44,434 bases of DNA. Source: an uncultured Acidiferrobacterales bacterium (GTDB lineage: Bacteria > Pseudomonadota > Gammaproteobacteria > Acidiferrobacterales > UBA6901). A program made the position numbers and the translations under genes. The stretch is taken from the NCBI GenBank assembly GCA_964355495.1, contig CAYHES010000004.1, positions 1 to 44,434 of the forward strand. Reading direction: 5' to 3'. This document shows positions 8,852 through 43,671 of the stretch, in pieces (the first letter of the stretch is position 1; every line of letters starts with the position of its first letter). Under the pieces are notes generated by a model. That model was not told where the DNA came from, made no database searches, and saw nothing but the letters and a program-made list of their open reading frames with translations.

Positions 8852-8895
8852 GAGAATCGACGCAAGGGAATCTTTCGAGATATCTTCCAGGCAGG

Positions 8896-11616: not shown

Positions 11617-11757
11617 TCACCGCCGGAGCGGGGCACGCAACGTCAGTCCCGTGGCGTCGAAGTGCGCCACGGTCACACCCATGGCGCGGATGAGTGGAAT
11701 CTGTGCATGCAGGGCCCGTTCCGGTTCCCGCAGTACTTCGGTTCCGAGCGGCTGCCT
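11617..11757 (-). pseudogene. remnant of a YiiD_C/PaaI-like thioesterase (about 46 codons, no start codon)
   Basis: Translation LREPERALHAQIPLIRAMGVTVAHFDATGLTLRAPLRR* resembles the N-terminus of YiiD_C-type thioesterases. It has no ATG/GTG/TTG and lies in frame directly after the glpD-like stop. It terminates where the conserved core should begin. Confidence 0.35.
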
Positions 11758-13670: not shown

Positions 13671-13743
13671 ATCAATGTGCTCCTGCCGTCGGTACGGTGC
13701 CTGGACTTTACCACCCCGCGGGCGCGGCCGCGAACCACGCCGG

Positions 13744-14394: not shown

Positions 14395-14468
14395 AAACGG
14401 GTCTCGCTGTTCACGAATGCAGGCCCGCGGCCGGTGCACGTCACGGTCGGCGTGAGCATGTCATGCGG

Positions 14469-18060: not shown

Positions 18061-18876
18061 TCACAAGAAGTAATAACTCAGGCGCAGGCCATAGACGTCC
18101 ATGTGGCTGCGCGGCTGCACCACCAGATAGGTCGAGCCGCCGTAGGTCAGCAACTCCGGGTCCGACCGGCTGAAGCGGTAGCTGTCGTAATACAAGGCGA
18201 CACCGAAGCGGTCATGCCGGCCGGAACCGAAATCAAACTGGAAATTGGCGAACGCGGAAGGCTTGAGTCCCGGTTCAAGGTCAACGCCGCTGCCCAGGTC
18301 CACATGCTCGCTGGTGGCGAGCGGCATTTTCACGCCGCCCTGCAGCATGTAGCGCCAGCCATCCAGCAGCTGGAAAAATCCCAACCCGGCCTTGCCATAC
18401 AGGATGGTGTAGTACTCTTCGTAACCATACACAGTCGTTCCGTTTGCGGCTCTGCCATCGGCAATCGAGCGTATCCACTCATCGATTCCCAGCGCGCCGA
18501 AGACATCCACACCGACGCGCCGGCCGAAACGATATCCGCCCTGTAGCTCGATGTTTAGTCCGAGATAGCTTACGTCTGTCGTGGCCGGGGTGCCGGATTG
18601 GGTCTGGCCATCGTAGTCGACGCTACCCAGGTAAATCTTGCCGTTGACGTTGTACAGAACGCCGGAGTCTTCGCGTCGAAAATTGTCGAATGCGGCGCCT
18701 ACGGAAAAGCGCGCGCCTTGCTCCTGCAGCAGGCGTCCGCCGGTGTCACCGAACTCACGCCAGAGGAAACTCTGGGGACCAAACTGTACGCTCGCCTGGT
18801 TCGCATCGGCGGCCTGAGCCGTCGCGGAGCATCCCAGCAGAAAGAAAAGGATCGCGGAAAGTTGTTTTGCACGCAT
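18061..18876 (-). CDS. outer-membrane beta-barrel protein (hypothetical)
   Basis: Signal peptide MRAKQLSAILFFLLGCSATAQA-AD, alternating aromatic/Gly beta-strand pattern, and C-terminal ...YGLRLSYYFL. It lies downstream of dadA on the same strand. Confidence 0.7.
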   Translation of the reverse strand: MRAKQLSAILFFLLGCSATAQAADANQASVQFGPQSFLWREFGDTGGRLLQEQGARFSVGAAFDNFRREDSGVLYNVNGKIYLGSVDYDGQTQSGTPATTDVSYLGLNIELQGGYRFGRRVGVDVFGALGIDEWIRSIADGRAANGTTVYGYEEYYTILYGKAGLGFFQLLDGWRYMLQGGVKMPLATSEHVDLGSGVDLEPGLKPSAFANFQFDFGSGRHDRFGVALYYDSYRFSRSDPELLTYGGSTYLVVQPRSHMDVYGLRLSYYFL

Positions 18877-18991
18877 GGCGAATGCCCCCTGTCGTAGCCC
18901 GTGGTGGATACCGCTCCTTGCAGCGCTGCTCGCCAGTAAACTATCCGCCAGGCCTGGTTTCAAGGCAAGCGTTTGCACTCCTGCCGAGGCG

Positions 18992-20245
18992 TCACCCGAA
19001 ACGCGCGAGCGTAAGGCCCGCGAGGTCGATGTCGGGCGCGCGTCCGGCAACGAGATCGGCCAGCACCTTTGCCGAGCCGCAGGCCATCGTCCAGCCGAGG
19101 GTGCCGTGGCCGGTGTTGAGGAACAGATTCTGATATGGCGTCGCGCCGATCACCGGCGGGTTGTCCGGTGTCATCGGGCGCAGGCCGGCCCAGGGTTCGG
19201 CAGCGGTGAGATCGCCGATCGCGGGGAAGAGGTCGCGCACCACATGCGCGAGCGTGGCGAGGCGCGCCGGGCGCAGTGTGAGATCGTAGCCGCAGAGTTC
19301 GGCGGTACCGGCGGCGCGCAGTCGCTTGCCGAGCCGGGTGATCACAACCTTATAGGTCTCGTCGGTGAGCGTGCCCTGGGGCGCGCCGGCATCGTTTGCA
19401 ATGGGCACGGTGATCGAATAGCCCTTCACCGGATACACCGGCAGCTTGATGCCGAGCGGCTTGAGCAGCAGCGGCGAGTAGCTGCCGCAGGCGAGTACAT
19501 AGGCGTCGGCGGTGAGCTCGCCGCAGTCGGTGGTCACGCGGGTAATGCGATCGCCATCGGCGACCAGCCGGGTCACGTTGGTGGAGGCGAGAAATCTAAC
19601 GCCGTGCGTCCGTGCACGCGCCGCCAGCTCTTCGGTGAAAAGCCGGCAGTCGCCGGACTCGTCGCCCGGAAACAGCATGCCACCGGCAATTTTTTCCTGC
19701 GAGTCCCGGAGCGCCGGTTCGTGCGCGACGCAGGCGGCGCGGTCGAGGAATCGATAGGCAATCCCGAGACGGTCGAGCAGTTGCGCCTCGCGGGTCGCCG
19801 CCGCAAGATCGCGCGCGCTGCGATACAGAATCAGCAGGCCGTGCGTGCTCTGGTCGTAGTGCAGGCCGGTTGCGTTGCGCAGTTCGGTCAGGCACGCGTG
19901 GCTGTAGCGCGCGAGCCGGAGCTGGCGTTCCTTGTTGGCGAGATAGCGCGCGTCCGTGCAATTGCGCAGCATCTGGCCGAGCCACCGCCACATGGCTGGA
20001 TCGAGCCTCGGGCGCAGTACCAGTGGCGCGTGCTGCTTGAACAGCCAGCCGAGCGCCTTGCCGGGAATGCCCGGCGCCGCCCACGGGTTGGCCGCGCCCC
20101 ACGACACCTGCCCGCCGTTGGCGAAGCTGGTTTCCATCGCCGGCTGCGGCTGGCGATCGACCAGTGTCACTTCATGACCGGCGCGCGCCAGATACCAGGC
20201 GCTGGTCACGCCGATCACGCCGCTGCCGAGAACCAGGATTTTCAT
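18992..20245 (-). CDS. dadA: D-amino-acid dehydrogenase
   Basis: MKILVLGSGVIGVTSAWYLARAGHEVTLVDR Rossmann start, ETSFANGGQ, and ...NTGHGTLGWTMACGS near the C-terminus. ATG 20245 is preferred. Confidence 0.9.
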   Translation of the reverse strand: MKILVLGSGVIGVTSAWYLARAGHEVTLVDRQPQPAMETSFANGGQVSWGAANPWAAPGIPGKALGWLFKQHAPLVLRPRLDPAMWRWLGQMLRNCTDARYLANKERQLRLARYSHACLTELRNATGLHYDQSTHGLLILYRSARDLAAATREAQLLDRLGIAYRFLDRAACVAHEPALRDSQEKIAGGMLFPGDESGDCRLFTEELAARARTHGVRFLASTNVTRLVADGDRITRVTTDCGELTADAYVLACGSYSPLLLKPLGIKLPVYPVKGYSITVPIANDAGAPQGTLTDETYKVVITRLGKRLRAAGTAELCGYDLTLRPARLATLAHVVRDLFPAIGDLTAAEPWAGLRPMTPDNPPVIGATPYQNLFLNTGHGTLGWTMACGSAKVLADLVAGRAPDIDLAGLTLARFG

Positions 20246-20451
20246 AAGGGGCGGAATATCGCCGCGCCCGGTGTACGCGCGGCACGGAAAGAACCGGAAT
20301 GCCGTCAGGATAACATGCGCCGGCGGCGCCATGTGCCGGCCGGCCGGCCGCGGCCGGGGTTGCGTGAGGCGGCACAGGTGAAACGCGCTGCTCTACCCGC
20401 CGGAGCGTCTGCGCTATAGTGGTGTCGGTTATTCCGCCGGCAGGAGGCGCC

Positions 20452-23575: not shown

Positions 23576-24565
23576 ATGCCCACCCCCGTATTAATCTGTG
23601 ACGACTCGAGCTTTGCGCGCAAGCAGATGGCCCGGGCCCTGCCGAAGGGCTGGGACGTGGACGTGAGCTTTGCCGGCAACGGCGCCGAGGCGCTCGTGGC
23701 CATCAAGTCCGGCAAGGCCGATATCCTGTTCCTTGATCTCAACATGCCGGTGATGGACGGTTACGAGACGCTGGCCACGATCCGCGCGCTCGATCTGCCG
23801 ACCCTGACCATCGTGGTGTCGGGCGACATCCAGCCGGAGGCGCAGGCGCGCGTGACGCAGCTCGGTGCCATGGCCTTTCTCAAGAAGCCGGTGAGCGAGG
23901 AAGAGATTGCACAGGTGCTGACCCGGTACGGTATTCGCGGCACCGACAAGGCAGGTGCCGCGCCGGTGCAGGTCGAGGTGGACATCCGCGACGGCTATAA
24001 GGAGGTGGCGAACGTCGCCATGGGCCAGGCCGCCGACTTCCTCGCGCGCCTGCTCAATGTGTTCGTGCTCATGCCGGTGCCGCACGTGAACATGATCGAT
24101 TCGGCCGATCTGCGCATGGCGCTCGGCGCCGTGGCCGCGGGTGAGAACGTCTCGGCCGTCTGCCAGGGCTTCATCGGCGCGGGTATCGCCGGGGAAGCGC
24201 TGCTGTTGTTCCATGAATCGAGCTTTCAGGACATCGCCGAACTCACCCAATACCAGGGCGAGATCGACGAGAGCGCCGAACTTGAGCTGCTCATGGACAT
24301 GGCCAATATCCTGATCGGCGCCTGTCTCAAGGGACTGGCCGACCAGCTTGAGGTGACCTTCAGCCAGGGGCCGCCCGTGGTGCTCGGGCGGCATGTAAAG
24401 GTGAGTGACTTGCTCAAGGGCAACGTGCTGCGCTGGAAGCAGACGCTCGCGATCGAGATGGGTTACCGCATCGAAAACCGCAAGATCAGTTGCGATCTGC
24501 TGCTGCTCCTGACCGAGGACTCGATTACCCCGCTCAACAAGCGCCTGCAGTACCTGATCGGATAG
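23576..24565 (+). CDS. response regulator: CheY-like receiver fused to a CheC/CheX-like domain
   Basis: Receiver residues are present (CDDSS, ILFLDLNMPVMDG, VVSGD, FLKKP). The C-terminal 200 aa begin YKEVANVAMGQAADFLARLL, the CheC/FliN-type repeat signature. Confidence 0.8.
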   Translation: MPTPVLICDDSSFARKQMARALPKGWDVDVSFAGNGAEALVAIKSGKADILFLDLNMPVMDGYETLATIRALDLPTLTIVVSGDIQPEAQARVTQLGAMAFLKKPVSEEEIAQVLTRYGIRGTDKAGAAPVQVEVDIRDGYKEVANVAMGQAADFLARLLNVFVLMPVPHVNMIDSADLRMALGAVAAGENVSAVCQGFIGAGIAGEALLLFHESSFQDIAELTQYQGEIDESAELELLMDMANILIGACLKGLADQLEVTFSQGPPVVLGRHVKVSDLLKGNVLRWKQTLAIEMGYRIENRKISCDLLLLLTEDSITPLNKRLQYLIG

Positions 24566-27330: not shown

Positions 27331-27420
27331 TAGGACTTTGAATTGTGCCCGCTCACAAAGGCGTGCAGCACTCGAAGCTTGCCCCGGCATGTTTTAAGCC
27401 GGGGCGGTGCTCAGGAATCA

Positions 27421-27592
27421 AAATCAATGGTTTCAGAGACATCCTGGATTCCGGCTTTCGCCGGAATGACGAAGCCCGATGTTTCGGTGCATTTTTCAAC
27501 AGCTCTGTTAGAGCATGACATGGTGTTGGTCCTTGTTGGGCGGAAAAACTGCTCCTGCGTTTTCCGCACTTCCGCCATCCATGGCGGTCGCC
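27421..27592. repeat. composite repeat: module B (27421-27513, attccggctttcgccggaat core) plus inverted module A (27542-27592)
   Basis: Module B is close to 33674-33766. Module A is the reverse complement of 33611-33660 and 7492-7540. Confidence 0.8.
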
Positions 27593-29740: not shown

Positions 29741-30103
29741 ATGGTCCAGGGCTATCGTCTCGATCCGGACGGCAAGGTTGCCGACGAGCGCTTCGCCGTC
29801 GTGTATGCACCGAAACGCGCCCGCGACCGGGTACCGGAGGGCAACGTGCAAGTGGTTGAGACGGAAGCCGCCGCGCTTGCCGCCGCCGATCCCGTGAAAA
29901 AACTTTTTCCCGCGCGCGTCATCGGCCCGGCGCGCTCCTCGACCGCTTGTTCCCGGCAACTGCTCCCTGCGTTGCTCTACCTCCCCACATCCCTGTGGGT
30001 CGCCGACGCGGTCTACCTCGTCCATCCATGGACTCGTCCGAAGGGGTTTCTGTCTACTACATTGTCTGCTGGCTGGATGGTGGGCCGGATTAACGCGAAA
30101 TGA
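29741..30103 (+). CDS. hypothetical protein
   Basis: GC3 is high in the first ~60 codons. The stop overlaps the ybgA-like start (ATGA). The C-terminal half is compositionally odd and I recognise no motif. Confidence 0.4.
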   Translation: MVQGYRLDPDGKVADERFAVVYAPKRARDRVPEGNVQVVETEAAALAAADPVKKLFPARVIGPARSSTACSRQLLPALLYLPTSLWVADAVYLVHPWTRPKGFLSTTLSAGWMVGRINAK

Positions 30104-31047
30104 GCGCGCGCATCCGCATCGGCATTTCGAGCTGCTTGCTTGGGCAGGCGGTGCGCTACGACGGCGGCCACAAGCACAACGGCTACATCACCGAGTCGCT
30201 CGGCCAGTTCTTCGACTTCGTGCCGTATTGCCCGGAGGTGGCGATTGGCCTCGGCGTGCCGCGCCCGCCGATTCGCCTGGTGAAAAGCGCGCACGGCCCG
30301 CGCGCCCGCGGCGTTAAAGACGCGACGCTGGATGTCACCGGCAAGCTCGTGGCCTATGCCAATAAAGTCGCCCTGACGCTGCGCGACCTGAGTGGCTACA
30401 TCCTCAAGCAAGGTTCGCCGAGTTGCGGCATGGAACGCGTGAACGTGTACGGCCCGCACGGCAGGTCGGTTGCCACCGGCGCCGGCCTTTACGCCGGCAC
30501 GCTGATGGCCCAGTTGCCGGAGTTGCCGTTCGAGGAAGAGGGCCGGCTCATGGACCCGGCGTTGCGCGAGAATTTCGTGGAACGCGTGTTCGTCTACCAT
30601 CGCTGGCAGCAGCTCACGACGCCGCGCCTGACGGCCAGGGCGCTGGTCGAGTTCCACGCGCGCCACAAGTTCATCGTGCTGGCGCACGACGAAAAGCGCT
30701 ACCGCGAACTCGGCCGCCTGGTGGCCACGGCCGGTCGCCGCGGCATGGCCGGGCTTGGGCGCACCTATATCCAGTTGCTGATGCAGGCCTTGAAGAAACC
30801 GGCCACGCGCACCCGCCACGCCAACGTGCTGCAGCACCTGTTCGGTTTTCTCAAACAGAACCTGGACGCCGCCGACAAGCGCGAACTGCTCGAATCGATC
30901 AACACCTACCGCCGCGGCCGGCTGCCGCGGGTGGTGCCCATCACCCTGCTGCGCCATTACCTGCGACGCTTTCCTGCACCGTACCTGAGTGAGCAGTACT
31001 ACCTTGCCCCGCACCCCGGCGAGCTCTTGTTGCGCAACCAGGTTTAA
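30100..31047 (+). CDS. ybgA: YbgA-family protein (DUF523 + DUF1722)
   Basis: IGISSCLLGQAVRYDGGHK...SPSCG (DUF523), then FHARHKFIVLAHD...LQHLFGFLK (DUF1722). Confidence 0.85.
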   Translation: MSARIRIGISSCLLGQAVRYDGGHKHNGYITESLGQFFDFVPYCPEVAIGLGVPRPPIRLVKSAHGPRARGVKDATLDVTGKLVAYANKVALTLRDLSGYILKQGSPSCGMERVNVYGPHGRSVATGAGLYAGTLMAQLPELPFEEEGRLMDPALRENFVERVFVYHRWQQLTTPRLTARALVEFHARHKFIVLAHDEKRYRELGRLVATAGRRGMAGLGRTYIQLLMQALKKPATRTRHANVLQHLFGFLKQNLDAADKRELLESINTYRRGRLPRVVPITLLRHYLRRFPAPYLSEQYYLAPHPGELLLRNQV

Positions 31048-31298
31048 CCTGCATCGGTTCGCGCGGCATGACTTGGCTGGCGCCGAAATATTTTCGGCAG
31101 GCCTGTAAGCAACCTTGAGGTTATCCGATCTACTCCTTGCCGGCAGTCTGGCGATTGTCGGCAACCGCGGCGAGCCCCTGGACGCGCTGGAACGCCGGCT
31201 GCGCGTGCAATTTCGTGGCAAGGATGTGTAAGTTCCCTGGCGGGGCGCCGACCAACGTCCAGATGCACCGAACTTAAACAACCTGAACGAGGAAACCC

Positions 31299-31586
31299 AT
31301 GCACAACACACGTTATGTGATTACCGCCGCTATCGCCGCGCTCACCAGCGGGGGCATGCTGGCCGCTGCCACCGCGCAGGCCGCCGGCACCGTGGTGTGC
31401 GCCGAACAGGAACGCTGTTACGGCATTGCCAGGGCCGGTAAGAACGACTGTGCCACATCGAGTTCGGTCTGTTCGGGCAGCGCCAAGCAGGATAACCAGA
31501 AGGATGCCTGGGTCTACGTCCCGAAAGGCATGTGCCTGAAAGTCGCCGGCGGCACGCTCGCTCTGCCGGATGCAAAAAAGAAGTAA
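31299..31586 (+). CDS. DUF2282 bufferin-type RiPP precursor, copy 1 (5 Cys)
   Basis: Sec signal peptide (AAATAQA-AG), then C..ERCYGIARAGKNDCATSSSVCSGSAK...DAWVYVPKGMC, the DUF2282 CYG...GKNDC...C.G pattern. RBS gagga. Confidence 0.85.
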   Translation: MHNTRYVITAAIAALTSGGMLAAATAQAAGTVVCAEQERCYGIARAGKNDCATSSSVCSGSAKQDNQKDAWVYVPKGMCLKVAGGTLALPDAKKK

Positions 31587-31691
31587 GCGACCGCGCAACG
31601 TGGTGATGCATGCCATGGAAGCGACGCGCGTCCCGGTCGCAGAAGGAATGCATCAACATCTAATTCTCAACCATAGCAAGGAGCCAACAAC

Positions 31692-31949
31692 ATGAAGCAT
31701 CGTAATGTCGTCATCACCACCGCCATCGGCAGCCTGTTCGCGCTCGGCTCACTTACCGCTGCCGCCGCCGACAAGGCACCGGTGGAAAAATGCTATGGCG
31801 TCGTCAAGGCCGGCAAGAACGACTGCCAGACCGCGAGCAGCGCCTGCGCCGGCACCGCGACCAAGGACGGACAGAAGGATGCCTGGATTTATCTCCCCCA
31901 GGGCAGCTGCGACAAGATCGTCGGCGCCTCGCTCAAGTCCGGCAAGTAA
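31692..31949 (+). CDS. DUF2282 bufferin-type RiPP precursor, copy 2 (4 Cys)
   Basis: Signal peptide (LTAAAA-DK), then EKCYGVVKAGKNDCQTASSACAGTATKDGQKDAWIYLPQGSC. RBS aaggag. Confidence 0.85.
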   Translation: MKHRNVVITTAIGSLFALGSLTAAAADKAPVEKCYGVVKAGKNDCQTASSACAGTATKDGQKDAWIYLPQGSCDKIVGASLKSGK

Positions 31950-31950
31950 T

Positions 31951-32823
31951 ATGGCGAGTGCCGCGCTCATCGGGCGTCCGCACGGGCCGATCCCGCCGCG
32001 CAGCGGGATCGGCCTGCGCGCCGAGCATTACCGCGACCTGCTGGAGCGGCGTCCGCCGCTGGCGTTTGTCGAAGTGCACAGCGAGAACTATTTCGGTGCC
32101 GGCGGGGCGCCGCACTATTTTCTCGAACAGGCGCGAGTGCACTATCCGCTCAGCCTGCATGGTGTCGGGCTGTCGCTTGGATCATCTGATCCACTCGATC
32201 GCGAACACCTGCGCCGGCTCAAGACGCTGATCCAGCGCTACGAACCGGCGCTGGTGTCCGACCATCTGAGCTGGAGTTCGGTCGGCGGCGTGTTTCTCAA
32301 CGACCTGTTGCCGCTGCCGTACACCGAGGAAACGCTGGCGCACTTCAGCACGCGCGTCGTGCAAGCGCAGGACTATCTCGGCCGCGAGCTGCTGATCGAA
32401 AACCCGTCGAGCTACCTGCAATACACCGAATCCGCGATCCCCGAGGGGGAATTCCTCGCCGCGGTGGCGCGCACCAGCGGCTGCGGCCTGCTACTGGATG
32501 TGAACAATATCTATGTCAGCAGCCAGAACCACGGCTTCGACGCGCACCGCTATCTCCAGGCGCTGCCGGCCGCGGCGGTGCGCGAGATCCATCTCGCCGG
32601 TTACACCGTCAACCGCTATCCCGAGGGCGAGATGCTGATCGACAGCCACAACGCGCTGGTCTCGGAGCCGGTGTGGGAGCTGTACGCGCACGCGCTACAC
32701 CTGCTCGGGCCGCGCCCGACGTTGATCGAGTGGGACAGCGATCTGCCGCCGCTCGATACCCTGCTCGGCCAGGCCGGACTGGCCGACGCCATACTGGCGC
32801 GCGAGACCGCCGATGCTGCGTGA
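31951..32823 (+). CDS. DUF692 / MNIO (multinuclear non-heme iron oxidative) enzyme, BufB/MbnB-like
   Basis: GIGLRAEHY...FVEVHSENYF...LSLHGVGLSLGS...VSDHLSW...LIENPSSY...LDVNNIY...EIHLAGY...LIDSH...LIEWD is the DUF692 TIM-barrel pattern. The start is 2 nt after the precursor stop. Confidence 0.85.
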   Translation: MASAALIGRPHGPIPPRSGIGLRAEHYRDLLERRPPLAFVEVHSENYFGAGGAPHYFLEQARVHYPLSLHGVGLSLGSSDPLDREHLRRLKTLIQRYEPALVSDHLSWSSVGGVFLNDLLPLPYTEETLAHFSTRVVQAQDYLGRELLIENPSSYLQYTESAIPEGEFLAAVARTSGCGLLLDVNNIYVSSQNHGFDAHRYLQALPAAAVREIHLAGYTVNRYPEGEMLIDSHNALVSEPVWELYAHALHLLGPRPTLIEWDSDLPPLDTLLGQAGLADAILARETADAA

Positions 32824-33577
32824 CCTGCAAGCCGAGTTTGCCGCCGCGCTGTTCGACGAGCGGCCGGAGATGGCCGCGCGTGTGCGCGCCGGCCGTTTCC
32901 CGGCCGCGCAGCACCTGCAGGTGTACCGCAACAACGTCGTCGAGAGCCTGACCGGCGCGCTGCGCGCGGTGTACCCGGTGGTCGAGAAACTGGTGGGCGA
33001 CGGCTTCTTCCGCTACGCCGTACACGAGTACCTGCGCGCGCACCGGCCGCGCAGCGGCAACCTGCATGATTTCGGCGATGCCTTCGCGGGTTTTCTCGCC
33101 GGCTTTGCGCCGGTCGCGGGATTGTCATACCTGCCGGATGTGGCGCGCCTCGAATGGGCCTGGCACCAGGCCTTCCATGCCGCCGACGCACCGGCCTTCG
33201 ATCTTGCGCGCCTTGGTGCGGTGCCGGCGGAACGGCATGAGACGCTGCGCTTCGTGCTGCACCCGAGCGCGCAGCTGCTGGCTTCGGTCTTCCCGGTCGT
33301 GCGCATTTTTGAAATCAACCAGGAAGGTTATGGCGGTGATACAAGCGTCGATCTCGCCGAGGGCGGCGTGCGTGCGCTCGTTATCCGGCGCGAATTGACG
33401 GTGTATGTCGAACCGCTCGCCGCCGGCGAAGCCGAGCTGTTGACCGCGCTCGCTGGACAACAACCGCTCGGTGCTGCCGTGTCGGCGGCGCTGGCCGTGC
33501 AACCGGAGTTCGATCTCACCGACACGCTCGCCGGGCATCTGCGGCGCGGCACCCTGGTGGACTGTCATGCGGACTAA
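32813..33577 (+). CDS. DUF2063 protein (BufC-like partner of the MNIO enzyme)
   Basis: LQAEFAAALFD...LQVYRNNVVESLTGALRAVYPVVEKLVGDGFF DUF2063 N-terminal signature. It overlaps the DUF692 stop by 11 nt. Confidence 0.8.
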   Translation: MLRDLQAEFAAALFDERPEMAARVRAGRFPAAQHLQVYRNNVVESLTGALRAVYPVVEKLVGDGFFRYAVHEYLRAHRPRSGNLHDFGDAFAGFLAGFAPVAGLSYLPDVARLEWAWHQAFHAADAPAFDLARLGAVPAERHETLRFVLHPSAQLLASVFPVVRIFEINQEGYGGDTSVDLAEGGVRALVIRRELTVYVEPLAAGEAELLTALAGQQPLGAAVSAALAVQPEFDLTDTLAGHLRRGTLVDCHAD

Positions 33578-33580
33578 CAG

Positions 33581-33768
33581 GTTGTTGAAAAAAGGGCTCG
33601 TCACACCGGCGCGACCGCCATGGATGGCGGAAGTACTGGAAACGCAGGAGCAGTTTCCGGTGCAAGCCGGTGTCCAGGAATTAAAATCAAGGGTTTCATC
33701 GACATCCTGGATTCCGGCTTTCGCCGGAATGACGAAGCTTGATGTTTCGTTGTGTTTTTCAACACCCT
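33581..33768. repeat. composite repeat element (module A 33611-33660 + module B 33674-33766) bounded by short inverted ends gttgttgaaaaa / tttttcaacac
   Basis: Same modules as at 27421-27592 but with opposite relative orientation. It occupies almost the whole DUF2063-DoxX spacer. Confidence 0.75.
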
Positions 33769-33794
33769 GCTAAACCATAACAACGGGAGGAACC

Positions 33795-34244
33795 ATGTCC
33801 TTACTGGCCAGACTCGATACTGTTTGCACACCGGTAGTGCGCGCCCTGGTGTGGCTGCAACCGGTGTTTGTGCTCGGTGTGCGTTTTTACGTCGCCAGCG
33901 TGTTCTTCAAATCCGGCCTCACCAAGATCGCCAGCATGGACACCACCATCCTGCTGTTCACGCACGAGTACCAGGTGCCGCTGCTCTCGCCCACGCTCGC
34001 GGCTTACCTCGGCACGGCCGCCGAGCTGGTCTTGCCGGTAATGCTGGCACTCGGTCTGGGCGGGCGCCTGGCCGCCGCTGCGCTATTCGTGTTCAACATT
34101 GTTGCGGTGATTTCCTACCCGGATCTTAACGAGGTCGGCGTCATGCAGCACCAGTACTGGGGCGTGCTGCTGCTGATACCGTTGCTCTATGGTCCGGGCA
34201 AGCTGTCGTTCGACTGCTTCATTAAACGCCGGCTGTCCAAGTAG
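33795..34244 (+). CDS. DoxX-family membrane protein
   Basis: Four TM segments, RFYVASVFFKSGLTK...AELVLPVMLALG DoxX pattern. RBS gggagg. Confidence 0.8.
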   Translation: MSLLARLDTVCTPVVRALVWLQPVFVLGVRFYVASVFFKSGLTKIASMDTTILLFTHEYQVPLLSPTLAAYLGTAAELVLPVMLALGLGGRLAAAALFVFNIVAVISYPDLNEVGVMQHQYWGVLLLIPLLYGPGKLSFDCFIKRRLSK

Positions 34245-34262
34245 GTACCGGTTTCCATTTTT

Positions 34263-34326
34263 GTAGGGTGCGCTTGCGCACCGTTGGCCTTGCCGAGCCG
34301 TGGATCGGTGCGCAAGCGCACCCTAC
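34263..34326. repeat. REP family 2 inverted pair
   Basis: gtagggtgcgcttgcgcaccg ... cggtgcgcaagcgcaccctac, the same family as 8787-8851. Confidence 0.85.
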
Positions 34327-34433
34327 TCAGAGGAGTTGCCGTTTTCCGCAGATTCCCATAAGAAACACAGGGCGTTGATGGCCGCGTTCCGGAACTTGGT
34401 GCAGACTGGGCACCCTCAGGTAAGGAGGGGGCC

Positions 34434-35069
34434 ATGTCCGGTTTCCTGAAAAAACAGCAAATGCCGGCGCCGCACGAGGCGCCACCCGGGCGCGCCGAGA
34501 AGCTGCGCGTGCCGGAAAAGCATTTCGTCAACGGCCATGCGCTCGCGCCGCCGTATCCGGATGGCCTGGAACTGGCGCTGTTCGGTCTTGGTTGTTTCTG
34601 GGGCGCGGAGAAATGTTTCTGGCAGCAGCCGGGCGTGTATGTGACCGCGGTGGGTTATGCCGGCGGCTACACGCCCAATCCGACTTATCAAGAGGTGTGC
34701 AGCGGCCGCACCGGGCACAACGAAGTGGTGCGCGTGGTGTTCGACCCGAAGCAGGTGAGCTACGCGCAACTGCTCAAGGCATTTTGGGAAGCGCACGACC
34801 CGACCCAGGGCATGCGCCAGGGAAACGATGTCGGTACCCAGTACCGCTCCGGCATCTATACCTATGGCGAGGCACAGCAACAGGCGGCGCGTGCTTCACT
34901 TGAACGCTATCAACAGGAACTGGCGCGTGCCGGTTTCCCACCGGTCACCACCGAGATCCGCGACGCGCCCGAGTTCTACTTCGCCGAGGATTATCACCAG
35001 CAGTATCTCGCCAAAAACCCGCGCGGCTATTGCGGCCACGGCGGCACCGGCGTTGCCAGCCCGGTGTAG
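34434..35069 (+). CDS. msrA: peptide-methionine (S)-S-oxide reductase
   Basis: [15 protein letters not shown]...[35 protein letters not shown] aaggaggggg. Confidence 0.92.
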
Positions 35070-35744: not shown

Positions 35745-38159
35745 ATGGATAGCCGGATTGCCGGAAAAACCCTTGGCCGGTTTCAGCTTGTCGGCGTCCT
35801 GGGCGAAGGGTCGCAGGGCACGGTGTATCTGGCCGATGACGCACACCTCGGTCGCCAGGTGGCGATCAAGACACTGAACCTGGCCCCGACCGACCGTATC
35901 GCGACGGTTCGGCGCCTGGCGCAGGAAGCGCGCAATGTCAGCCGCCTCAGCCATCCGCACATTGTCACGCTGTATGACGCCGGTGAATCCGACGGCGAGC
36001 CTTATCTGGTCTTCGAATACGTGCCGGGCGAAACCCTGGCGTGGGTACTGGAGCGCGAGACGCGCTTGCCACTCAATCGTGCGGTCACGATCACCATCCA
36101 GATTCTGGAAGGCGTGGCGTGCGCGCACGAACACAAGGTGCTGCACCGCGATCTCAAGCCGGGCAACATTATTTTCGATGCCGCCGGGCGTGCGCGCATT
36201 GCGGATTTCGGCATCAGCACGCCGCTGTCCACGACCGCCGGTGGGGCTTTCGCCGGAACACCCTTGTATGCCGCGCCGGAGTATGTCGCGCGCGGCGAGT
36301 TTCTGCCGCAATCCGATCTGTATGCAGTCGCGGCCATGCTCTACGAGATGATCGCCGGTCGTACCGCCGCGCAGGGCGAGACGGTAAAAGAAGTCTTGCA
36401 GCGTGTGCTGCAGGAAGATGCGTCGCCGCCATCGCGCCACAACAGCGAGGTGGATGAGAAGCTCGATGCGCTGGTATTGCGCGGACTGGTCCGGCGCCCG
36501 GAGCAGCGTTACCGCACGGCGCGTGAGATGATTGACGCGCTGCGTGCCTGGCTCGAACCGGAGACGCCACCCGCGCTGACCACCGAGGCGAACCAGAGCA
36601 CCATCGAGTTTCTGCTGCGGCGCATGCGCGTGAAAAGCGAGTTTCCGGCGCTGTCCCACAGCATTCGCAGCATCAACCGCATTGCCTCCTCGGACAAGGA
36701 AAGCGCCAGCACCCTCGGGCGCGTGATCCTCAAGGACTTCGCCCTCACCAATCGCCTGCTCAAGCTGGTCAACGCCGCCACGTTCGGCCAGTACGGCAAG
36801 GTGAGCACGATTTCCCGCGCGGTAGTGATCGTCGGTTTCGAGGTGGTGCGCAGCATGGCGGTCACGCTGCTGTTTCTCGATCACCTGCAGAACAAGGCGC
36901 AGGCCGAAAGTCTCAAGGAAGACGTGGTCGGCTCGCTGCTGAGCGGCCTGCTTGCCCGGCAGATCGCCGGCGGTGACCTGCGCGACAACGAGGAGGCCTA
37001 CATCTGTGCGGTCTATCAGAACCTCGGCCGGCTGCTCGCTACCTATTACTTCTACGAAGAATCGCAGGAGATCGAGCGGCTCATGGCCAGCAAGCATTTC
37101 AGCGAGGAGCGCGCATCGAGCCAAGTACTGGGGGTCAGTTACGAACAGCTCGGGATCGAAATCGCCAAGACCTGGAGTTTCCCGGAGCGCATCCTCTACA
37201 GCATGAGCAAGATCGGCGCCGGCAAGGCGCCGCCCCAGAAAACCGCGGACGATCGGGCGCGGGTCATCGCCAACCTGGCCGATGAGCTGCGCGCGATCGC
37301 GACCACCGTCCCGGCGGATGAATCGGCCGTGCGGCTCAAGCAGATCAGCGAGCGCTACGCGGACTGCATGCAGTTCGACGTCACGCAGCTCAAGCGCATC
37401 ACACAGGATGCCGTGCAGGAAATTACCAAGGAAGCGTCTCTTTTCAATCTCGATCTCAAGAACAGCGGTGTGATGCGCCAGGCTCGGTCCTGGGCGGCGG
37501 AGGCGGGGACGAATGCCAGCGTGCACGGGGAAAACAGCAAGCCGGACGCACTCGGTGAAACCGACCTGGAAAGAACGCTGATCAGAGACGAAGGCAGCGC
37601 GGCGGCGGAAACCGTGACGTCCACCGGCGGCAAACCGGAGAACGCCGCCGCGATCCTGAGTGCCGGCATTCAGGACATCACCAACACCCTGGTGTCGGAA
37701 TACCAGCTCAACGACCTGCTCAACATGATCATGGAGACCATGTATCGCGGCATGGGGTTCGCGCGCGTGTTGCTGGCGGTGCGCGATGCGCGCAGCGGAC
37801 TGATTGCCGGGCGCTTCGCCCTCGGCGAGGGCGGCGACAACCTGGCGCGCCGGTTCTCGTTTCCGCTCGCCGGCAATCCGGACCTGTTTCGCCTGGCCGT
37901 TTCGCAGGGCCGCGACATCCTGATCTCCGACGCGCACGCCGAGAAGGTGCATGCGCAGTTGCCCGAGTGGTATCGCACCCATGTGCACGCATCGGCGTTT
38001 GTGTTGTTCCCGATTCTGGTCGGAAAGAATCCGGTGGGTCTTTTCTATGCCGATGTGCTCGGCGAGACTCCCTTGCAGATCGCGCGCGAGGAGGCCAACC
38101 TGCTGGTGACGTTGCGCAACCAGGCGGTGCTCGCCTTCAAAAACGCCGCCGCGGGCTGA
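35745..38159 (+). CDS. Ser/Thr protein kinase fused to HDOD and GAF domains
   Basis: Kinase: GEGSQGTVY, VAIK, HRDLKPGNIIF, DFGIS, YAAPEY. Middle: FPALSHSIRSINRIASS...LTNRLLKLVNAATFG...VSTISRAVVIVGFEVVRSM (HDOD). C-terminal: LNDLLNMIMETMYRGMGFARVLLAV...PVGLFYAD (GAF-like). Confidence 0.8.
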   Translation: MDSRIAGKTLGRFQLVGVLGEGSQGTVYLADDAHLGRQVAIKTLNLAPTDRIATVRRLAQEARNVSRLSHPHIVTLYDAGESDGEPYLVFEYVPGETLAWVLERETRLPLNRAVTITIQILEGVACAHEHKVLHRDLKPGNIIFDAAGRARIADFGISTPLSTTAGGAFAGTPLYAAPEYVARGEFLPQSDLYAVAAMLYEMIAGRTAAQGETVKEVLQRVLQEDASPPSRHNSEVDEKLDALVLRGLVRRPEQRYRTAREMIDALRAWLEPETPPALTTEANQSTIEFLLRRMRVKSEFPALSHSIRSINRIASSDKESASTLGRVILKDFALTNRLLKLVNAATFGQYGKVSTISRAVVIVGFEVVRSMAVTLLFLDHLQNKAQAESLKEDVVGSLLSGLLARQIAGGDLRDNEEAYICAVYQNLGRLLATYYFYEESQEIERLMASKHFSEERASSQVLGVSYEQLGIEIAKTWSFPERILYSMSKIGAGKAPPQKTADDRARVIANLADELRAIATTVPADESAVRLKQISERYADCMQFDVTQLKRITQDAVQEITKEASLFNLDLKNSGVMRQARSWAAEAGTNASVHGENSKPDALGETDLERTLIRDEGSAAAETVTSTGGKPENAAAILSAGIQDITNTLVSEYQLNDLLNMIMETMYRGMGFARVLLAVRDARSGLIAGRFALGEGGDNLARRFSFPLAGNPDLFRLAVSQGRDILISDAHAEKVHAQLPEWYRTHVHASAFVLFPILVGKNPVGLFYADVLGETPLQIAREEANLLVTLRNQAVLAFKNAAAG

Positions 38160-39039: not shown

Positions 39040-41493
39040 GTGGTCGGGAAAGGATGGGGTAAACTCGATAAAAACAAGTTTGTTTCATTTCCACCGATAT
39101 CTTCCTGGGGAGCGGATTCCGCTTTGAACGAGGCCGATACCTGCCGCCGGTTGGTGGTGCCCAAGCTGCAAGTGGCCGGCTGGGACAACGAACCGCATTC
39201 GATCGCCGAGCAACGCACCGTCACCGATGGGCGTATCGTGCCGGTCGGCAAGGGCTTCATCCGCAAACCACCCAAGCGCGTGGATTACCTGCTGCGCTAC
39301 ACGCGCGACTTCCCGCTCGCCGTGGTTGAGGCCAAAGCGGGCTATAAATCCGCCGCAGACGGAATGCAGCAGGCCAGGCAGTACGCCGAGATGCTGGACT
39401 TGAAGTTTGCCTATGCGACGAATGGGCGCGAAATAATCGAGTTCGACTATTTTACGGGTCGCGAGATACCCGTTACGGACTATCCGACACCGGCTCAGCT
39501 CTGGCAGCGTTACCGCACCGGCAGCGGCGTCAAGGATCAGCAAGCCGCCGAGCGCCTGCTTACGCCCTTCAATCACGCCGTCGGCAAGGGCGAGCGTTAC
39601 TACCAACAAATCGCCATCAACCGTACGATCGAGGCTATTCTGAAGGAGCAGCGGCGTCTGCTCATTACGATGGCGACCGGCACGGGCAAGACGGTCGTGG
39701 CCTTTCAAATCTGCTGGAAGCTGTGGAACGCCCGCTGGAACCGCACCGGCGATCACCGCCGTCCGCGCATTCTCTATCTCGCGGACCGCAACATTCTGGT
39801 GGATCAACCGAAGGATGGCATATTCGCGGCCTTCGGCGATGCGCGCTACAAGATCGAATTCGGCGAAGTCGTTCAGAGCCGCGAGATGTACTTCGCCATC
39901 TATCAGGCGCTGGCCGAGGACGAGCGGCGTGCCGGTCTGTTCAGGGCCTATGCGCCGGATTTCTTCGACCTCGTGATTGTGGACGAATGCCACCGCGGCA
40001 GCGCGCGTGACGACAGCGCTTGGCGCAGCATCCTTGATTACTTCGAGCCCGCGGTGCAGCTCGGCATGACGGCTACTCCGTTGCGCGAAGAAAGCCGCGA
40101 CACTTATCTCTATTTCGGCAACCCGATCTACGAATACAGTCTGCGCCAGGGCATCGAGGACGGCTTCCTCGCGCCATATCGCGTGCATCGGGTCATTACC
40201 GAATGGGACGCCGCCGGCTGGCGCCCTAGCAGGGATGAGCTGGACCGCTATGGTCGCGCCATCCCTGACGATGAATACCAGACCAAGGATTTCGAGCGGG
40301 CCGTGGCATTGCGTGCCCGCACCGAAACCATCGCGCGCCACCTCACCGACTTCCTCAAAAAGACCGATCGCTTCGCCAAGACCATCGTCTTCTGCGTGGA
40401 TCAGGAACACGCCAGCGAAATGCGCCAAGCTCTGAACAATCTCAATAATGATCTGGTTGCCCAGCACCCGGATTACGTCTGCCGCGTCACCTCCGACGAA
40501 GGCGATATCGGGCGCGGCCACCTCAGCCGCTTTCAGGACGTGGATACCCAAACACCCACGATCCTCACCACCTCGCAGTTGCTCACCACTGGCGTTGATG
40601 CGCCGACCTGCAAGAACGTGGTCCTTGCCCGCGTCATCGGTTCCATGAGCGAGTTCAAGCAGATCATCGGGCGTGGCACGCGCGTGCGCGACGACTACGG
40701 CAAGCTCTGGTTCAACATTCTCGACTACACCGGCTCGGCCACGCGCCTGTTCGCCGATCCAGATTTTGACGGCGATCCGGTGAGGCTGACCGAAGAAGAG
40801 CTAATGGCAAGCGGTGAAGTCCGCGTCATCACGGACAGCGTGCTGTATCCGGAAGGAGCGGAAGAGCAGATTGCCCACGGGCCAGAAGGTGGCGTGATGG
40901 AACCGCCTGCCGATGAGCGCCGCAAGTATTACTTCGATGGCGGCCAGGTCGAAATCGCCGCGCATCTGGTGTACGAGCTGGACCCGGACGGCAAGCAACT
41001 GCGCGTGGTGCGCTACACCGACTACGCCGTTGAGAAGATTCGTTCGCTCTGTCCCACGGCCAAAGAGTTGCGCGACCAATGGGCCGACCCCGAGCGCCGT
41101 TCAGAAATCATCCGCAGCCTGGAAGAGCGCGGCGTGAGCTTTACCGAACTGGCCGAGGCTGCCCAACAGCCCGAGGCCGACCCGTTCGATCTGTTGTGCC
41201 ATCTCGCCTTCAACGCGCCGCTGCGCACCCGCCGCGAACGGGCGCAGCGCCTGAAAAGCGAGCGCAAGGACTTCTTCGACCGTTACGGCCCCGAGGCGCG
41301 CCAGATTTTGGATGAGCTTTTGGAGAAATACGCCGAGCACGGCAACGCGCAGTTCGTCCTGCCCGATGTGCTGCACGTTCCGCCGCTTTCCGGGCACGGC
41401 ACCATCCGCGAGATCAGCGCCGCCTTCGGCGGCGCCGACAAGCTGCGGGCGGCCGTGCACGACCTGCAAAACCTGCTGTATGCCGCGTCGTGA
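39040..41493 (+). CDS. hsdR: type I restriction enzyme R subunit (HsdR, EcoEI_R_C-type)
   Basis: LNEADTCRRLVVPKLQVAGW (HsdR_N), MATGTGKT, VDECHRG, MTATP, QIIGRGTR, and a C-terminal ...PFDLLCHLAFN...FFDRYG...LLEKY EcoEI R C-terminal domain. Family N-termini usually begin right at NEADTCR, so TTG 39124 is a plausible true start. Confidence 0.9.
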   Translation: MVGKGWGKLDKNKFVSFPPISSWGADSALNEADTCRRLVVPKLQVAGWDNEPHSIAEQRTVTDGRIVPVGKGFIRKPPKRVDYLLRYTRDFPLAVVEAKAGYKSAADGMQQARQYAEMLDLKFAYATNGREIIEFDYFTGREIPVTDYPTPAQLWQRYRTGSGVKDQQAAERLLTPFNHAVGKGERYYQQIAINRTIEAILKEQRRLLITMATGTGKTVVAFQICWKLWNARWNRTGDHRRPRILYLADRNILVDQPKDGIFAAFGDARYKIEFGEVVQSREMYFAIYQALAEDERRAGLFRAYAPDFFDLVIVDECHRGSARDDSAWRSILDYFEPAVQLGMTATPLREESRDTYLYFGNPIYEYSLRQGIEDGFLAPYRVHRVITEWDAAGWRPSRDELDRYGRAIPDDEYQTKDFERAVALRARTETIARHLTDFLKKTDRFAKTIVFCVDQEHASEMRQALNNLNNDLVAQHPDYVCRVTSDEGDIGRGHLSRFQDVDTQTPTILTTSQLLTTGVDAPTCKNVVLARVIGSMSEFKQIIGRGTRVRDDYGKLWFNILDYTGSATRLFADPDFDGDPVRLTEEELMASGEVRVITDSVLYPEGAEEQIAHGPEGGVMEPPADERRKYYFDGGQVEIAAHLVYELDPDGKQLRVVRYTDYAVEKIRSLCPTAKELRDQWADPERRSEIIRSLEERGVSFTELAEAAQQPEADPFDLLCHLAFNAPLRTRRERAQRLKSERKDFFDRYGPEARQILDELLEKYAEHGNAQFVLPDVLHVPPLSGHGTIREISAAFGGADKLRAAVHDLQNLLYAAS

Positions 41494-41520
41494 AACGAGG
41501 AAGTATGTGTAAGGATGATT

Positions 41521-42041
41521 CTGGATTGCTTCGCGCCCGTTGGGCGCTCGCAATGACGAGGCTGGGTCCACCGTTCTGTCATTGCGAGGAGGGCGCGGCC
41601 CGACGAAGCAATCCAGCCATCAGCCAGAACCCATTGCACGAATCCTGGTGGGGCCCATGAAACAGCCATGCGTTTACATCATGGCAAGCCAACGAAACGG
41701 CACGCTGTATACGGGAGTCACTTCAAACCTCGTTCAGCGCGTCTACCAGCACAAGGAAAGTCTGGCGGAGGGTTTCACCTGCAAATACGGTTGCAAGATG
41801 CTGGTTTGGTACGAGCCGCACGAAACGATGGAAAGCGCCATCCAGAGGGAGAAACAGATCAAAGCGGGAAGTCGTGCGAAAAAGCTGGCGCGGATTGAGG
41901 CCGCAAATCCGGCATGGCGGGATTTGTACGATGAGATCGTATAGCTTGGATTGCTTCGCGCCCTTCGGTCGCTCGCAATGACGGGGCTGCATCAGCCGTT
42001 GCGTCATTGCGAGGAGGGCGGAGCCCGACGAAGCAATCCAG
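41521..42041 (+). mobile_element. candidate mini-cassette: hairpin repeat, GIY-YIG gene, hairpin repeat
   Basis: Two direct ~96-nt nested-palindrome repeats (41521-41616 and 41945-42041, about 12 mismatches by eye) immediately bracket one small nuclease ORF inside the hsdR-hsdM spacer. Confidence 0.4.
41657..41944 (+). CDS. GIY-YIG nuclease-family protein (UPF0213-like, 95 aa)
   Basis: CVYIMASQRNGTLYTGVTSNLVQRVYQHK...KMLVWYE...AIQREKQIKAGSRAKK, a GIY / YxG / R / E pattern of the small stand-alone GIY-YIG proteins. Confidence 0.85.
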   Translation: MKQPCVYIMASQRNGTLYTGVTSNLVQRVYQHKESLAEGFTCKYGCKMLVWYEPHETMESAIQREKQIKAGSRAKKLARIEAANPAWRDLYDEIV

Positions 42042-42096
42042 AAACAGCCCGGAAGCTTCCCGGAAACATCCAATATAGAGCGAGAGAACACGCGTA

Positions 42097-43671
42097 ATGC
42101 CCCGAACCAAGAAAACCAAAGCGATGGCGGACAAACCCCAGACCACCGCCCAGTCCCTCGGCAGCCTGATCAAGTCCGCGCGCGACATCATGCGCAAGGA
42201 CAAGGGCCTGAACGGCGATCTCGACCGCCTGCCGATGCTCACCTGGATCATGTTCCTCAAGTTTCTGGACGATCTGGAGATGCAGCGCAAGGACGAAGCC
42301 GACCTGGCCGGCACGAAATTCCGCCCGGCTGTCGAGAAACCTTACCGCTGGCGCGACTGGGCGGCGCAGGCCGATGGCATTACCGGCGATGAGTTGCTCG
42401 CGTTCATCAATCAGGACAAGTGCCGGCGGCCGGATGGAACCAAAGGCGCCGGTCTGTTCGCCTATCTGCGCAATCTCACGAGTTCCAACGGTGACAACCG
42501 CCGCGATGTGATCGCCACCGTGTTCAAGGGCGTGGACAACCGCATGAAGAGCGGTTACCTGCTTCGCGATGTGATCAACAAGGTGAACGGCATCCATTTC
42601 ACCGCCAGCGACGAGCTGCATACCTTGGGTAGCCTGTACGAATCCATGCTGCGCGAGATGCGCGACGCGGCCGGCGATTCCGGTGAGTTCTACACGCCGC
42701 GCGCGGTGGTGCGTTTCATGGTCGATGCGGTCGATCCACGGCTTGGCGAAACCGTGCTCGACCCGGCCTGCGGCACCGGCGGGTTCCTGGTCGAGGTATT
42801 CAGTCACTTGAGCCGGCAGGTGAAGACCGTTGCCGACCGAAAGCTGCTCCAGACACGCTCGGTCACTGGCTACGAGGCCAAGCCGCTGCCGTACCTGCTG
42901 GCGCAGATGAACCTGCTGCTGCACGGGCTCGACGCGCCACAGATCGACCCCGGCAACGCGTTGCGCTTCAAACTTACCGAGATCGGCGAGAAGGAGCGCG
43001 TAAACGTGATCCTCACCAACCCGCCGTTCGGCGGCGAGGAAGAAAAGGGTATCCAGGGCAACTTTCCCGAAGACCGCCAGACTGCTGAAACCGCGCTGCT
43101 GTTCCTGCAACTCATCATGCGCCGGCTCAAGAAAAACCCCTCTCCCTCTGGAAGAGGGGCGGGGGCGAGGGCCGCGCGCGCCGCCGTGGTTGTTCCTAAC
43201 GGCATGTTGTTCGGCGACGGCGTCTGCGCCCGCGTCAAGGAAGAACTGCTCAAGGACTATAACCTCCACACCATCGTGCGCCTGCCCAACGGTGTGTTCG
43301 CGCCGTACACCAGCATTCCGACCAACCTCCTATTCTTCGACCGCGCCGGTCCGACCAAGGAGGTCTGGTACTACGAACAGCCATTGCCAGAAGGCCGCAA
43401 GAACTACACCAAAACCCAGCCGCTCCAGTTCGAGGAATTCAAGCCGTGCCTCGAATGGTGGAGCAAGCGGGAGGAAAACGATCGCGCCTGGAAAGTGAAT
43501 GCCGAAGAACTGCTCGCCAACAACTGCAACCTCGACCGCAAGAACCCGCGCGGCAAAGTGGACTTCGAGCACCTTCCGCCGGAACAGCTTGCCGATGACA
43601 TCTTGAAGAAGGAACAGCGCATTGCCAAGATCATGGCGGAGATCAAGATTCTGCTGGTGCAGAAGGTGTGA
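42097..43671 (+). CDS. hsdM: type I restriction-modification N6-adenine DNA methyltransferase (HsdM)
   Basis: HsdM_N region (SLIKSARDIMRKDKGL...LTWIMFLKFLDD), FYTPRAVVRFMV, DPACGTGGFL, LTNPPFGG. It contains an in-frame REP family 1 copy at 43137-43171. Confidence 0.9.
   Translation: MPRTKKTKAMADKPQTTAQSLGSLIKSARDIMRKDKGLNGDLDRLPMLTWIMFLKFLDDLEMQRKDEADLAGTKFRPAVEKPYRWRDWAAQADGITGDELLAFINQDKCRRPDGTKGAGLFAYLRNLTSSNGDNRRDVIATVFKGVDNRMKSGYLLRDVINKVNGIHFTASDELHTLGSLYESMLREMRDAAGDSGEFYTPRAVVRFMVDAVDPRLGETVLDPACGTGGFLVEVFSHLSRQVKTVADRKLLQTRSVTGYEAKPLPYLLAQMNLLLHGLDAPQIDPGNALRFKLTEIGEKERVNVILTNPPFGGEEEKGIQGNFPEDRQTAETALLFLQLIMRRLKKNPSPSGRGAGARAARAAVVVPNGMLFGDGVCARVKEELLKDYNLHTIVRLPNGVFAPYTSIPTNLLFFDRAGPTKEVWYYEQPLPEGRKNYTKTQPLQFEEFKPCLEWWSKREENDRAWKVNAEELLANNCNLDRKNPRGKVDFEHLPPEQLADDILKKEQRIAKIMAEIKILLVQKV
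43137..43171. repeat. REP family 1 copy inside the hsdM coding sequence
   Basis: cccctctccctctggaagaggggcgggggcgaggg, translated in frame as PSPSGRGAGAR. Confidence 0.8.

Follow-up and report, generated by a model that had tools for sequence, protein, structure and literature searches.

How does a bufferin gene cluster come to hold two different precursor genes for a single pair of maturation enzymes, and what drives its transcription when no regulatory gene adjoins it? Bufferins form a very large and recently recognised class of periplasmic copper-binding peptides synthesised by ribosomes and modified after translation (RiPPs), and both questions are raised by a locus at positions 31299–34244 of contig CAYHES010000004.1 (assembly GCA_964355495.1) from an uncultured Acidiferrobacterales bacterium, the whole 44,434-nt stretch analysed being called the window below. 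An initial annotation, made from the sequence alone, had recognised here the gene set DUF2282-DUF692-DUF2063-DoxX with two tandem DUF2282 precursors. The reading favoured in this work, to which we give a probability of roughly 0.8, is that the locus is a Buf1-type (captophorin) operon in which one enzyme pair serves two substrates, transcribed from a promoter-like site called P2 by a sigma factor acting in trans, after a 1.1-kb deletion of the sigma and anti-sigma genes once present upstream.

The five genes (bufA1a, bufA1b, bufB, bufC and bufD; Table 1) all lie on the plus strand where they had been placed, and profile searches with Pfam and NCBIfam models upheld every family assignment, the one correction being the accession of DUF2282, for which hmmscan returns PF10048 and not PF09987. 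BufB also scores above the cutoff of the NCBIfam equivalog model NF050167 (MNIO_BufB; 385.9 bits, cutoff 310), covering profile positions 2–260 of 262, and its nearest solved structure in a PDB sequence search is 3bww (E=8e-45). The precursor query and BufC found no match in the PDB sequence searches, and BufC matches the NCBIfam model HvfC weakly (44.9 bits, under the cutoff). Within the 44 kb, hmmsearch detects no DUF2282 open reading frame (ORF) other than bufA1a and bufA1b. Both carry, as read from the sequence, the Buf1 four-Cys pattern C-Y-G ... G-K-N-D-C ... C-x-G ... C; they have five and four Cys and not the six or twelve of the BufA2 type, whose profile NF050166 (Buf_6/12Cys; cutoff 60) gives them 22.4 and 28.2 bits. 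They do not belong to an oxazolin-type system either, as BufB reaches 241.5 bits with the HvfB model NF003818 (cutoff 360) and the precursors are without KCG repeats. By inspection, both N-termini are of the Sec type with a basic N-region and a hydrophobic stretch, followed by an AQA/AG site in bufA1a (predicted cut after AQA28) and an AAA/DK site in bufA1b. Good Shine-Dalgarno sequences precede bufA1a, bufA1b and bufD, and because bufB starts 1 nt past the bufA1b stop codon and bufC overlaps bufB by 11 nt, translational coupling of bufA1b, bufB and bufC is likely. By its genes and profile scores, then, 31299–34244 is classified as a Buf1-type bufferin cluster, a known kind of system, which bears out the bufferin reading of the initial annotation.

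The two precursors, separated by 105 nt as first described, are clearly diverged (43 of 85 aligned residues identical, 51%), and the fifth Cys that had been noticed in the first copy is present six residues ahead of CysI in the motif CAEQERCYG, within the string VVCAEQERCYG. A search of 5.8 billion proteins gave 176 homologues of bufA1a, and in all 120 of the best matches inspected, down to 59% identity, this Cys is kept in CAEQERCYG or a close variant while other positions vary. Twenty-four loci with a 5-Cys gene were collected, 23 of them with enough sequence to judge the neighbourhood, and in 22 of these the gene adjoins a 4-Cys DUF2282 gene, in either order. The exception to the pairing is L088 (related loci are cited by such numbers), where the 5-Cys precursor has its own BufB and BufC. 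At this locus (6001–11648) these genes are followed by a sigma gene of the extracytoplasmic function (ECF) type, an anti-sigma gene of the zf-HC2 type and another MNIO/DUF2063/DoxX set with two KCG-repeat (oxazolin-like) precursors, so that two captophorin types share one locus.

Mean identity across loci is 77% within the 5-Cys precursors (type a) and 81% within the 4-Cys precursors (type b), compared with 58% between the types. Both precursors are evidently under purifying selection, with dN/dS values against four relatives, sigma-less lineages included, of 0.07–0.17 for bufA1a and 0.10–0.21 for bufA1b. The possibility raised in the initial annotation, that only one of them might be conserved, does not hold: both form separate orthologous groups (dN/dS 0.07–0.21 overall). 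Type b is orthologous to the lone precursor of related one-precursor loci, and because of this resemblance the 4-Cys type is regarded as the canonical substrate of the enzyme clade and the 5-Cys type as the conserved addition, an old paralogue. The two nearest relatives, L010 (an Acidiferrobacterales metagenome-assembled genome, BufB 95% identical) and L001 (BufB 68%), carry the same two precursor types. Sequence comparison therefore describes the two precursors as ancient conserved paralogues in separate orthologous groups, neither a chance duplicate nor a peculiarity of one genome, and the question of two substrates narrows to a pairing that is an ancient conserved trait of the 5-Cys subfamily. 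A third DUF2282 gene, with CAG and not CYG after CysI, is divergent from the sigma gene in L010 (3–245, minus strand), L001 (2–142, minus strand) and L169 (2297–2569, minus strand); it occurs in loci that keep the regulator and is absent from the window.

Tandem precursors as such are less unusual than had been implied, although they are indeed present here. Tandem DUF2282 genes are found in 8 of 80 genomic relatives of BufB, some of them near-identical recent duplicates (e.g. Photobacterium L015/L018 and L045), and tandem precursor genes reported in some biosynthetic gene clusters (BGCs) suggest more than one substrate per MNIO enzyme, according to a published survey of MNIO clusters (Microb Genom 2025, PMC12452194). 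The main text of that paper mentions neither a fifth, five or extra Cys nor DUF3379 or zf-HC2, and a further literature search returned nothing specific. The 5-Cys precursor subfamily, widespread and almost always paired, is apparently undescribed.

An adjacent ECF sigma/anti-sigma pair is a facultative feature of Buf1 systems, shared by some of their BGCs. Pfam scans covering every large ORF of the 44 kb, together with an ECF sigma hidden Markov model built from relatives, detected no intact sigma, anti-sigma or metal-sensor gene anywhere in the window, where only a promoter and a 3' stub of such a pair are found. The earlier statement that no regulatory gene is present is accordingly right for intact genes and incomplete in that the 3' end of a DUF3379-type anti-sigma gene survives at about 31141–31231. 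In L010 and L001 an ECF sigma gene and a DUF3379 (PF11859) gene lie directly upstream of the precursors, and the DUF3379 protein is built like a membrane anti-sigma factor, with the motif HxxxCxxC towards its N-terminus, a hydrophobic segment in the middle and a domain at the C-terminus. The orthologous locus L169 (GCA_973471985.1) is complete and has the order Na/H exchanger, third bufA, sigma, DUF3379, 5-Cys bufA, 4-Cys bufA, bufB, bufC, bufD, msrA, DUF488, and its genes downstream of the buf operon are the same as in the window. By blastn, window positions 31138–33577 align to L169 3826–6286 at 86% and 31086–31137 to L169 2674–2724. Because the two alignments abut in the window, the 1.1 kb at L169 2725–3825, containing the whole sigma gene and all of the anti-sigma gene except its last ~30 codons, has no counterpart there, and from this comparison the pair is concluded to have been removed by a 1.1-kb deletion. 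The interval 31109–31140, proposed by tblastn as further anti-sigma coding sequence, was reassigned to the P1 region of L010 and L169, which it matches in two perfect blocks at the same spacing.

Four independent contigs (L081, L082, L084 and L170) likewise have ybgA followed by bufA1a, and an assembly chimera at the ybgA-buf junction was therefore ruled out. Stubs of the anti-sigma gene are progressively more decayed in L083, L081 and L084, with 36% identity left in L081, and the sigma-less arrangement is present in at least six diverged contigs. Since close relatives carry an upstream module of the DUF3379, zf-HC2 or RskA (L171) type or none at all, the comparison points to a regulatory module that turns over fast while the promoter in front of the operon stays. 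The modules concerned were located at 2442–3724 in L171 (RskA_C), 3073–3893 in L172 (zf-HC2) and 2731–3919 in L169 (DUF3379). A sigma gene is nearby in 31 of 150 fetched BufB loci, so a sigma-less bufferin cluster is common in itself. Positions 1303–1337 of L010, 35 nt inside its anti-sigma gene that encode the peptide GEVDRVG, match window positions 30003–30037 (minus strand), upstream of ybgA, at 91%, and are probably a small repeat inserted in frame in the L010 gene.

The question of regulation is thereby narrowed, for while the upstream ECF pair of the relatives has been lost in the window, two ECF-type promoter-like sites have been kept. Their joint pattern has two matches in the window against 0.00 expected from shuffled sequences. 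P1, judged from its counterparts in L010 and L169, is the promoter left over from the sigma gene that was deleted, and is now fused to the anti-sigma stub. P2 shares sequence with the stub's stop codon, and 43 nt lie between its end and the start codon of bufA1a. Both of its half-sites are invariant in an alignment of six relatives while the adjoining stub decays; the site is found in all close relatives and in the more distant L093 and L094 (17 fetched loci in all), and TGTAAG-N16-CGACMAA also lies upstream of DUF2282 genes in the unrelated buf loci L039–L041. Additionally, sigma-less lineages keep P2 strictly although the gene upstream differs between them, being ybgA in the window and in L081 and a Na/H exchanger in L083; this speaks for selection acting on P2. 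Its sequence is similar to GTAACC-N16-CGAA, the site mapped by experiment for sigmaF at the buf operons of Caulobacter (PMC3511200). A scan of 30900–34500 for sigma-70-type promoters gave 0 sites, and an Rfam scan of 30000–35000 at E≤1 returned no riboswitch or other RNA family. P2 is probably the working promoter. With its cognate sigma/anti-sigma pair deleted, the operon would have to depend on an ECF sigma factor whose gene lies at another place in the genome and which is predicted to act at P2. In L016 (2399), L086 (5268) and L094 (4392), TGTAAG-N16-CGACMAA was also seen in the 3'-terminal part of the ECF sigma gene, immediately ahead of the anti-sigma gene, and may be an internal promoter there.

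In Caulobacter vibrioides, BufB and BufC make 5-thiooxazoles from the two Cys in the middle of BufA1, and a disulfide joins the outer two; the product is exported by Sec and has a very high affinity for Cu(I) and Cu(II), and DoxX is dispensable (PMC11626156); bufferins, oxazolin and fontiphorin have since been grouped as one 5-thiooxazole class, the captophorins (10.1101/2025.11.18.689057). In the mechanism proposed here, transcription of bufA1a-bufA1b-bufB-bufC-bufD would start at P2 with the trans-encoded sigma factor. By analogy with Caulobacter buf1, BufB and BufC would then act on two central Cys in each precursor, that of GKNDC and that of S-x-C-[SA]-G, and turn them into 5-thiooxazoles; the precursors would be exported by Sec, lose their signal peptides and form the CysI-CysIV disulfide, and the mature small proteins would bind copper in the periplasm. 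One BufB/BufC pair would in this way serve two conserved substrates, type a and type b. Since two Cys would be heterocyclised and two engaged in a disulfide, the fifth Cys of type a would most likely be left as a free periplasmic thiol in the mature peptide, where it may bind metal as a further ligand or enter a mixed disulfide and so confer a different binding property. A lipoprotein role for this Cys was rejected on inspection: the sequences that lead up to it (T-V-V-C, D-V-R-C, L-V-Q-C) do not resemble a lipobox, and there is an AxA cleavage site ahead of it. It is a tentative and rather doubtful extension that the 5-Cys peptide is a chemically distinct bufferin working with the 4-Cys peptide as a two-component periplasmic metallophore system, the two then not being interchangeable as substrates, in which the extra thiol could be a third sulfur ligand altering metal specificity or affinity, a third MNIO site, or the link of a covalent homodimer or heterodimer.

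Other explanations of the locus differ in whether the operon is expressed at all, and from where. The deletion of the sigma/anti-sigma pair is real, repeats with a terminator-like hairpin separate bufC from bufD with another repeat after bufD, and P1 is decayed in L081 and L082; taken together, these features could describe a silent remnant that has not been expressed since the deletion and is turning into pseudogenes. Such a fate is nevertheless very unlikely for an operon whose five ORFs are intact, whose BufB fits its profile end to end and whose precursors both show dN/dS of 0.07–0.21 against other sigma-less lineages at dS of 0.3–0.7; moreover P2 has stayed invariant while the stub beside it decayed to 36% identity in L081, and at least six diverged contigs have retained the sigma-less arrangement. 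An operon expressed without an ECF promoter, through read-through from ybgA or from an unrecognised housekeeping promoter, with P1 and P2 as functionless inheritance, is somewhat easier to defend and yet unlikely. The end of ybgA is only 251 nt upstream on the same strand, with a weak terminator-like site at 31073–31086 between, no cognate sigma gene lies in the window, and the low share of BufB loci with a sigma gene nearby (31/150) implies that for many buf clusters regulation is of another kind or acts in trans. Neither the empty sigma-70 scan nor the strict retention of P2 in sigma-less lineages with differing upstream neighbours fits that account. As to the precursors, near-identical tandem copies such as those of Photobacterium (L015/L018, L045) suggest that duplications for dosage do occur in the family, but that the pair in the window is redundant, serving gene dosage only, and that its fifth Cys has no specific role, is highly improbable for copies that are 51% identical and belong to separately conserved orthologous groups, with CAEQERC or a close variant kept in 120 of the 120 best homologues (of 176) while other positions vary, and with a 5-Cys type in L088 that has its own BufB and BufC.

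The reading of a two-substrate Buf1 operon transcribed from P2 is thus preferred, and several observations weigh against parts of it. The modification chemistry, copper binding and Sec export are carried over to this locus by analogy throughout. The AlphaFold2 model of mature bufA1a (48-sequence alignment; pLDDT 43, pTM 0.21) was unusable and lends no structural support to any role of the fifth Cys. The cognate sigma gene is not within the 44-kb window, and we infer its presence in this genome. P2 has one base fewer between GTAA and CG than the sigmaF consensus of Caulobacter, and P1, being decayed in L081 and L082 and partly lost in L084, is not a site under strong constraint. Finally, the hairpin inside the repeat insert between bufC and bufD may uncouple bufD from the rest of the operon.

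Table 1. Features of the bufferin locus and its surroundings (positions refer to the window).
Feature	Positions	Strand	Evidence or remarks
ybgA-like neighbour (DUF1722 + 2-thiouracil desulfurase domain)	30100–31047	same strand as buf genes	Pfam
P1, ECF-type promoter-like site GTAAGC-N15-CGATCTAC	31105–31133	+	counterpart of the site ahead of the sigma gene in L010 (312) and L169 (2692)
Anti-sigma 3' stub (DUF3379-type, last ~30 codons + stop), ...GSLAIVGNRGEPLDALERRLRVQFRGKDV*	31141–31231	+	tblastn with L010 anti-sigma, E=7e-12; boundary by blastn against L169
P2, ECF-type promoter-like site TGTAAG-N16-CGACCAA, also written GTAAGT-N15-CGACCAAC (at 31228) or TGTAAG-N16-CGACCAAC	31227–31256	+	alignment of relatives
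bufA1a (5-Cys DUF2282 precursor, 95 aa)	31299–31586	+	PF10048, 79.4 bits (cutoff 22.4)
Precursor spacer, 105 nt	31587–31691	+	holds a ~50–65-nt lineage-specific insert and the bufA1b Shine-Dalgarno sequence AGGAG
bufA1b (canonical 4-Cys DUF2282 precursor, 85 aa)	31692–31949	+	PF10048, 82.4 bits (cutoff 22.4)
bufB (MNIO/DUF692 maturase), in-frame ATG at 31951, stop at 32823	31951–32823	+	PF05114, 351.7 bits
bufC (DUF2063 partner protein)	32813–33577	+	PF09836, 86.5 bits (cutoff 27.2)
bufC-bufD spacer, 217 nt, filled by repeats	33578–33794	+	unit A 33611–33663, unit B 33668–33782
bufD (DoxX-family membrane protein)	33795–34244	+	PF07681, 60.7 bits (cutoff 23.6)
Perfect 21-nt inverted repeat after bufD, REP-like	34263–34326 (repeat region 34254–34326)	not applicable	related copy at 8787–8860
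MsrA neighbour	34434–35069		Pfam

The spacers of the operon differ among relatives. The insert between the precursors is absent from L083, L010 and L001, and a hairpin there was rejected as an attenuator or terminator, as it folds no better than shuffled sequence (z 0.0 to -1.3), has no T-run and lies in a lineage-specific insert. The spacer between bufC and bufD is 21 nt long in L082, L083 and L084. The repeat units that fill it in the window are MITE/REP-like (unit A ~50 nt, unit B ~116 nt, one unit B frame reading ..WIPAFAGMT..), have copies at 7491–7543 and 27405–27591, and include the terminator-like hairpin with a T-run at 33729–33753. L081, L082 and L084 are without the perfect 21-nt inverted repeat that follows bufD in the window; this repeat is possibly the operon terminator. 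Further repeat pairs of the window lie at 6493–6657/15287–15753 and 41522–41616/41947–42041.

The flanking genes ybgA and msrA, named in the initial annotation, were confirmed by Pfam. Downstream, positions 35745–38159 encode an 804-aa protein with Ser/Thr protein kinase, HDOD and GAF domains, kept downstream of msrA and DUF488 in L081 and L082, and 39040–43671 hold type I restriction-modification genes, HsdR-like (817 aa) and HsdM-like (524 aa), between which lies a pair of 95-nt direct repeats. Apart from the buf genes, the metal-related genes of the 44 kb are limited to divergent DUF4198 and HupE/UreJ_2 genes at 6681–8749, 23 kb from the buf cluster, a pair which we take to be typical of a nickel/cobalt-type uptake system; the whole 44 kb was looked through for regulators and copper genes, and no link between this pair and the buf cluster was found. 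Four long ORFs with coding-like composition have no Pfam match (11893–13116, 13675–14481, 18875–20419 and 23591–24394), some of which may be artefacts of the high G+C content.

Among characterised systems, buf1 of Caulobacter vibrioides (bufA1BCD, CCNA_03363-03366; SigF/NrsF) agrees with the window in its four protein families and in their order: a DUF2282 precursor, which carries a Sec signal peptide and the four-Cys core, is followed by an MNIO enzyme of the BufB type, a DUF2063 partner and DoxX. It also has an ECF-type promoter of similar sequence (GTAACC-N16-CGAA, compared with TGTAAG-N16-CGAC in the window). Unlike Caulobacter buf1, with its single precursor gene, the window has two, one with a fifth Cys, and it has no adjacent sigma/anti-sigma gene; furthermore, the anti-sigma factors of its relatives are of the DUF3379, zf-HC2 or RskA type whereas that of Caulobacter is NrsF (DUF1109). 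The metal-induced gig operons of Cupriavidus metallidurans and Legionella pneumophila share the DUF2282-DUF692-DUF2063-DoxX set (PMC11626156), a likeness drawn from their published description, which mentions no 5-Cys/4-Cys pair. The tandem-precursor BGCs of PMC12452194 have the same arrangement as the window, while the main text of that paper is without the 5-Cys subfamily or its pairing. Oxazolin (HvfABC) and fontiphorin involve a related MNIO enzyme and DUF2063 partner and 5-thiooxazoles on Cys of a copper-binding peptide, as proposed here, but their precursors consist of EGKCG repeats whereas those of the window are folded DUF2282 domains. Methanobactin MbnB belongs to the same MNIO superfamily as the window BufB (PDB matches to MbnB at E ~1e-9), although its model is distant (63 bits, cutoff 325), and the MbnB/MbnC system differs in its product (oxazolone-thioamide), its partner protein and its leader-dependent export.

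As a whole, the locus is a modest new variation on a known RiPP system, to which it adds a 5-Cys precursor subfamily that is almost always paired and the loss of a regulator with the promoter kept. To our knowledge, only single bufferin precursors with four or six Cys have been studied experimentally so far, and a 5-Cys and a canonical precursor that would share one BufB/BufC pair offer a natural experiment on the substrate scope of MNIO enzymes and on the tuning of metal binding by a thiol. P2, if it works as predicted, gives a testable handle on the control of sigma-less bufferin clusters, which are the majority, and the same ECF-type promoter-like site kept behind a DUF3379, zf-HC2 or RskA module, or behind none, may provide a view on how the regulation of these clusters evolves.

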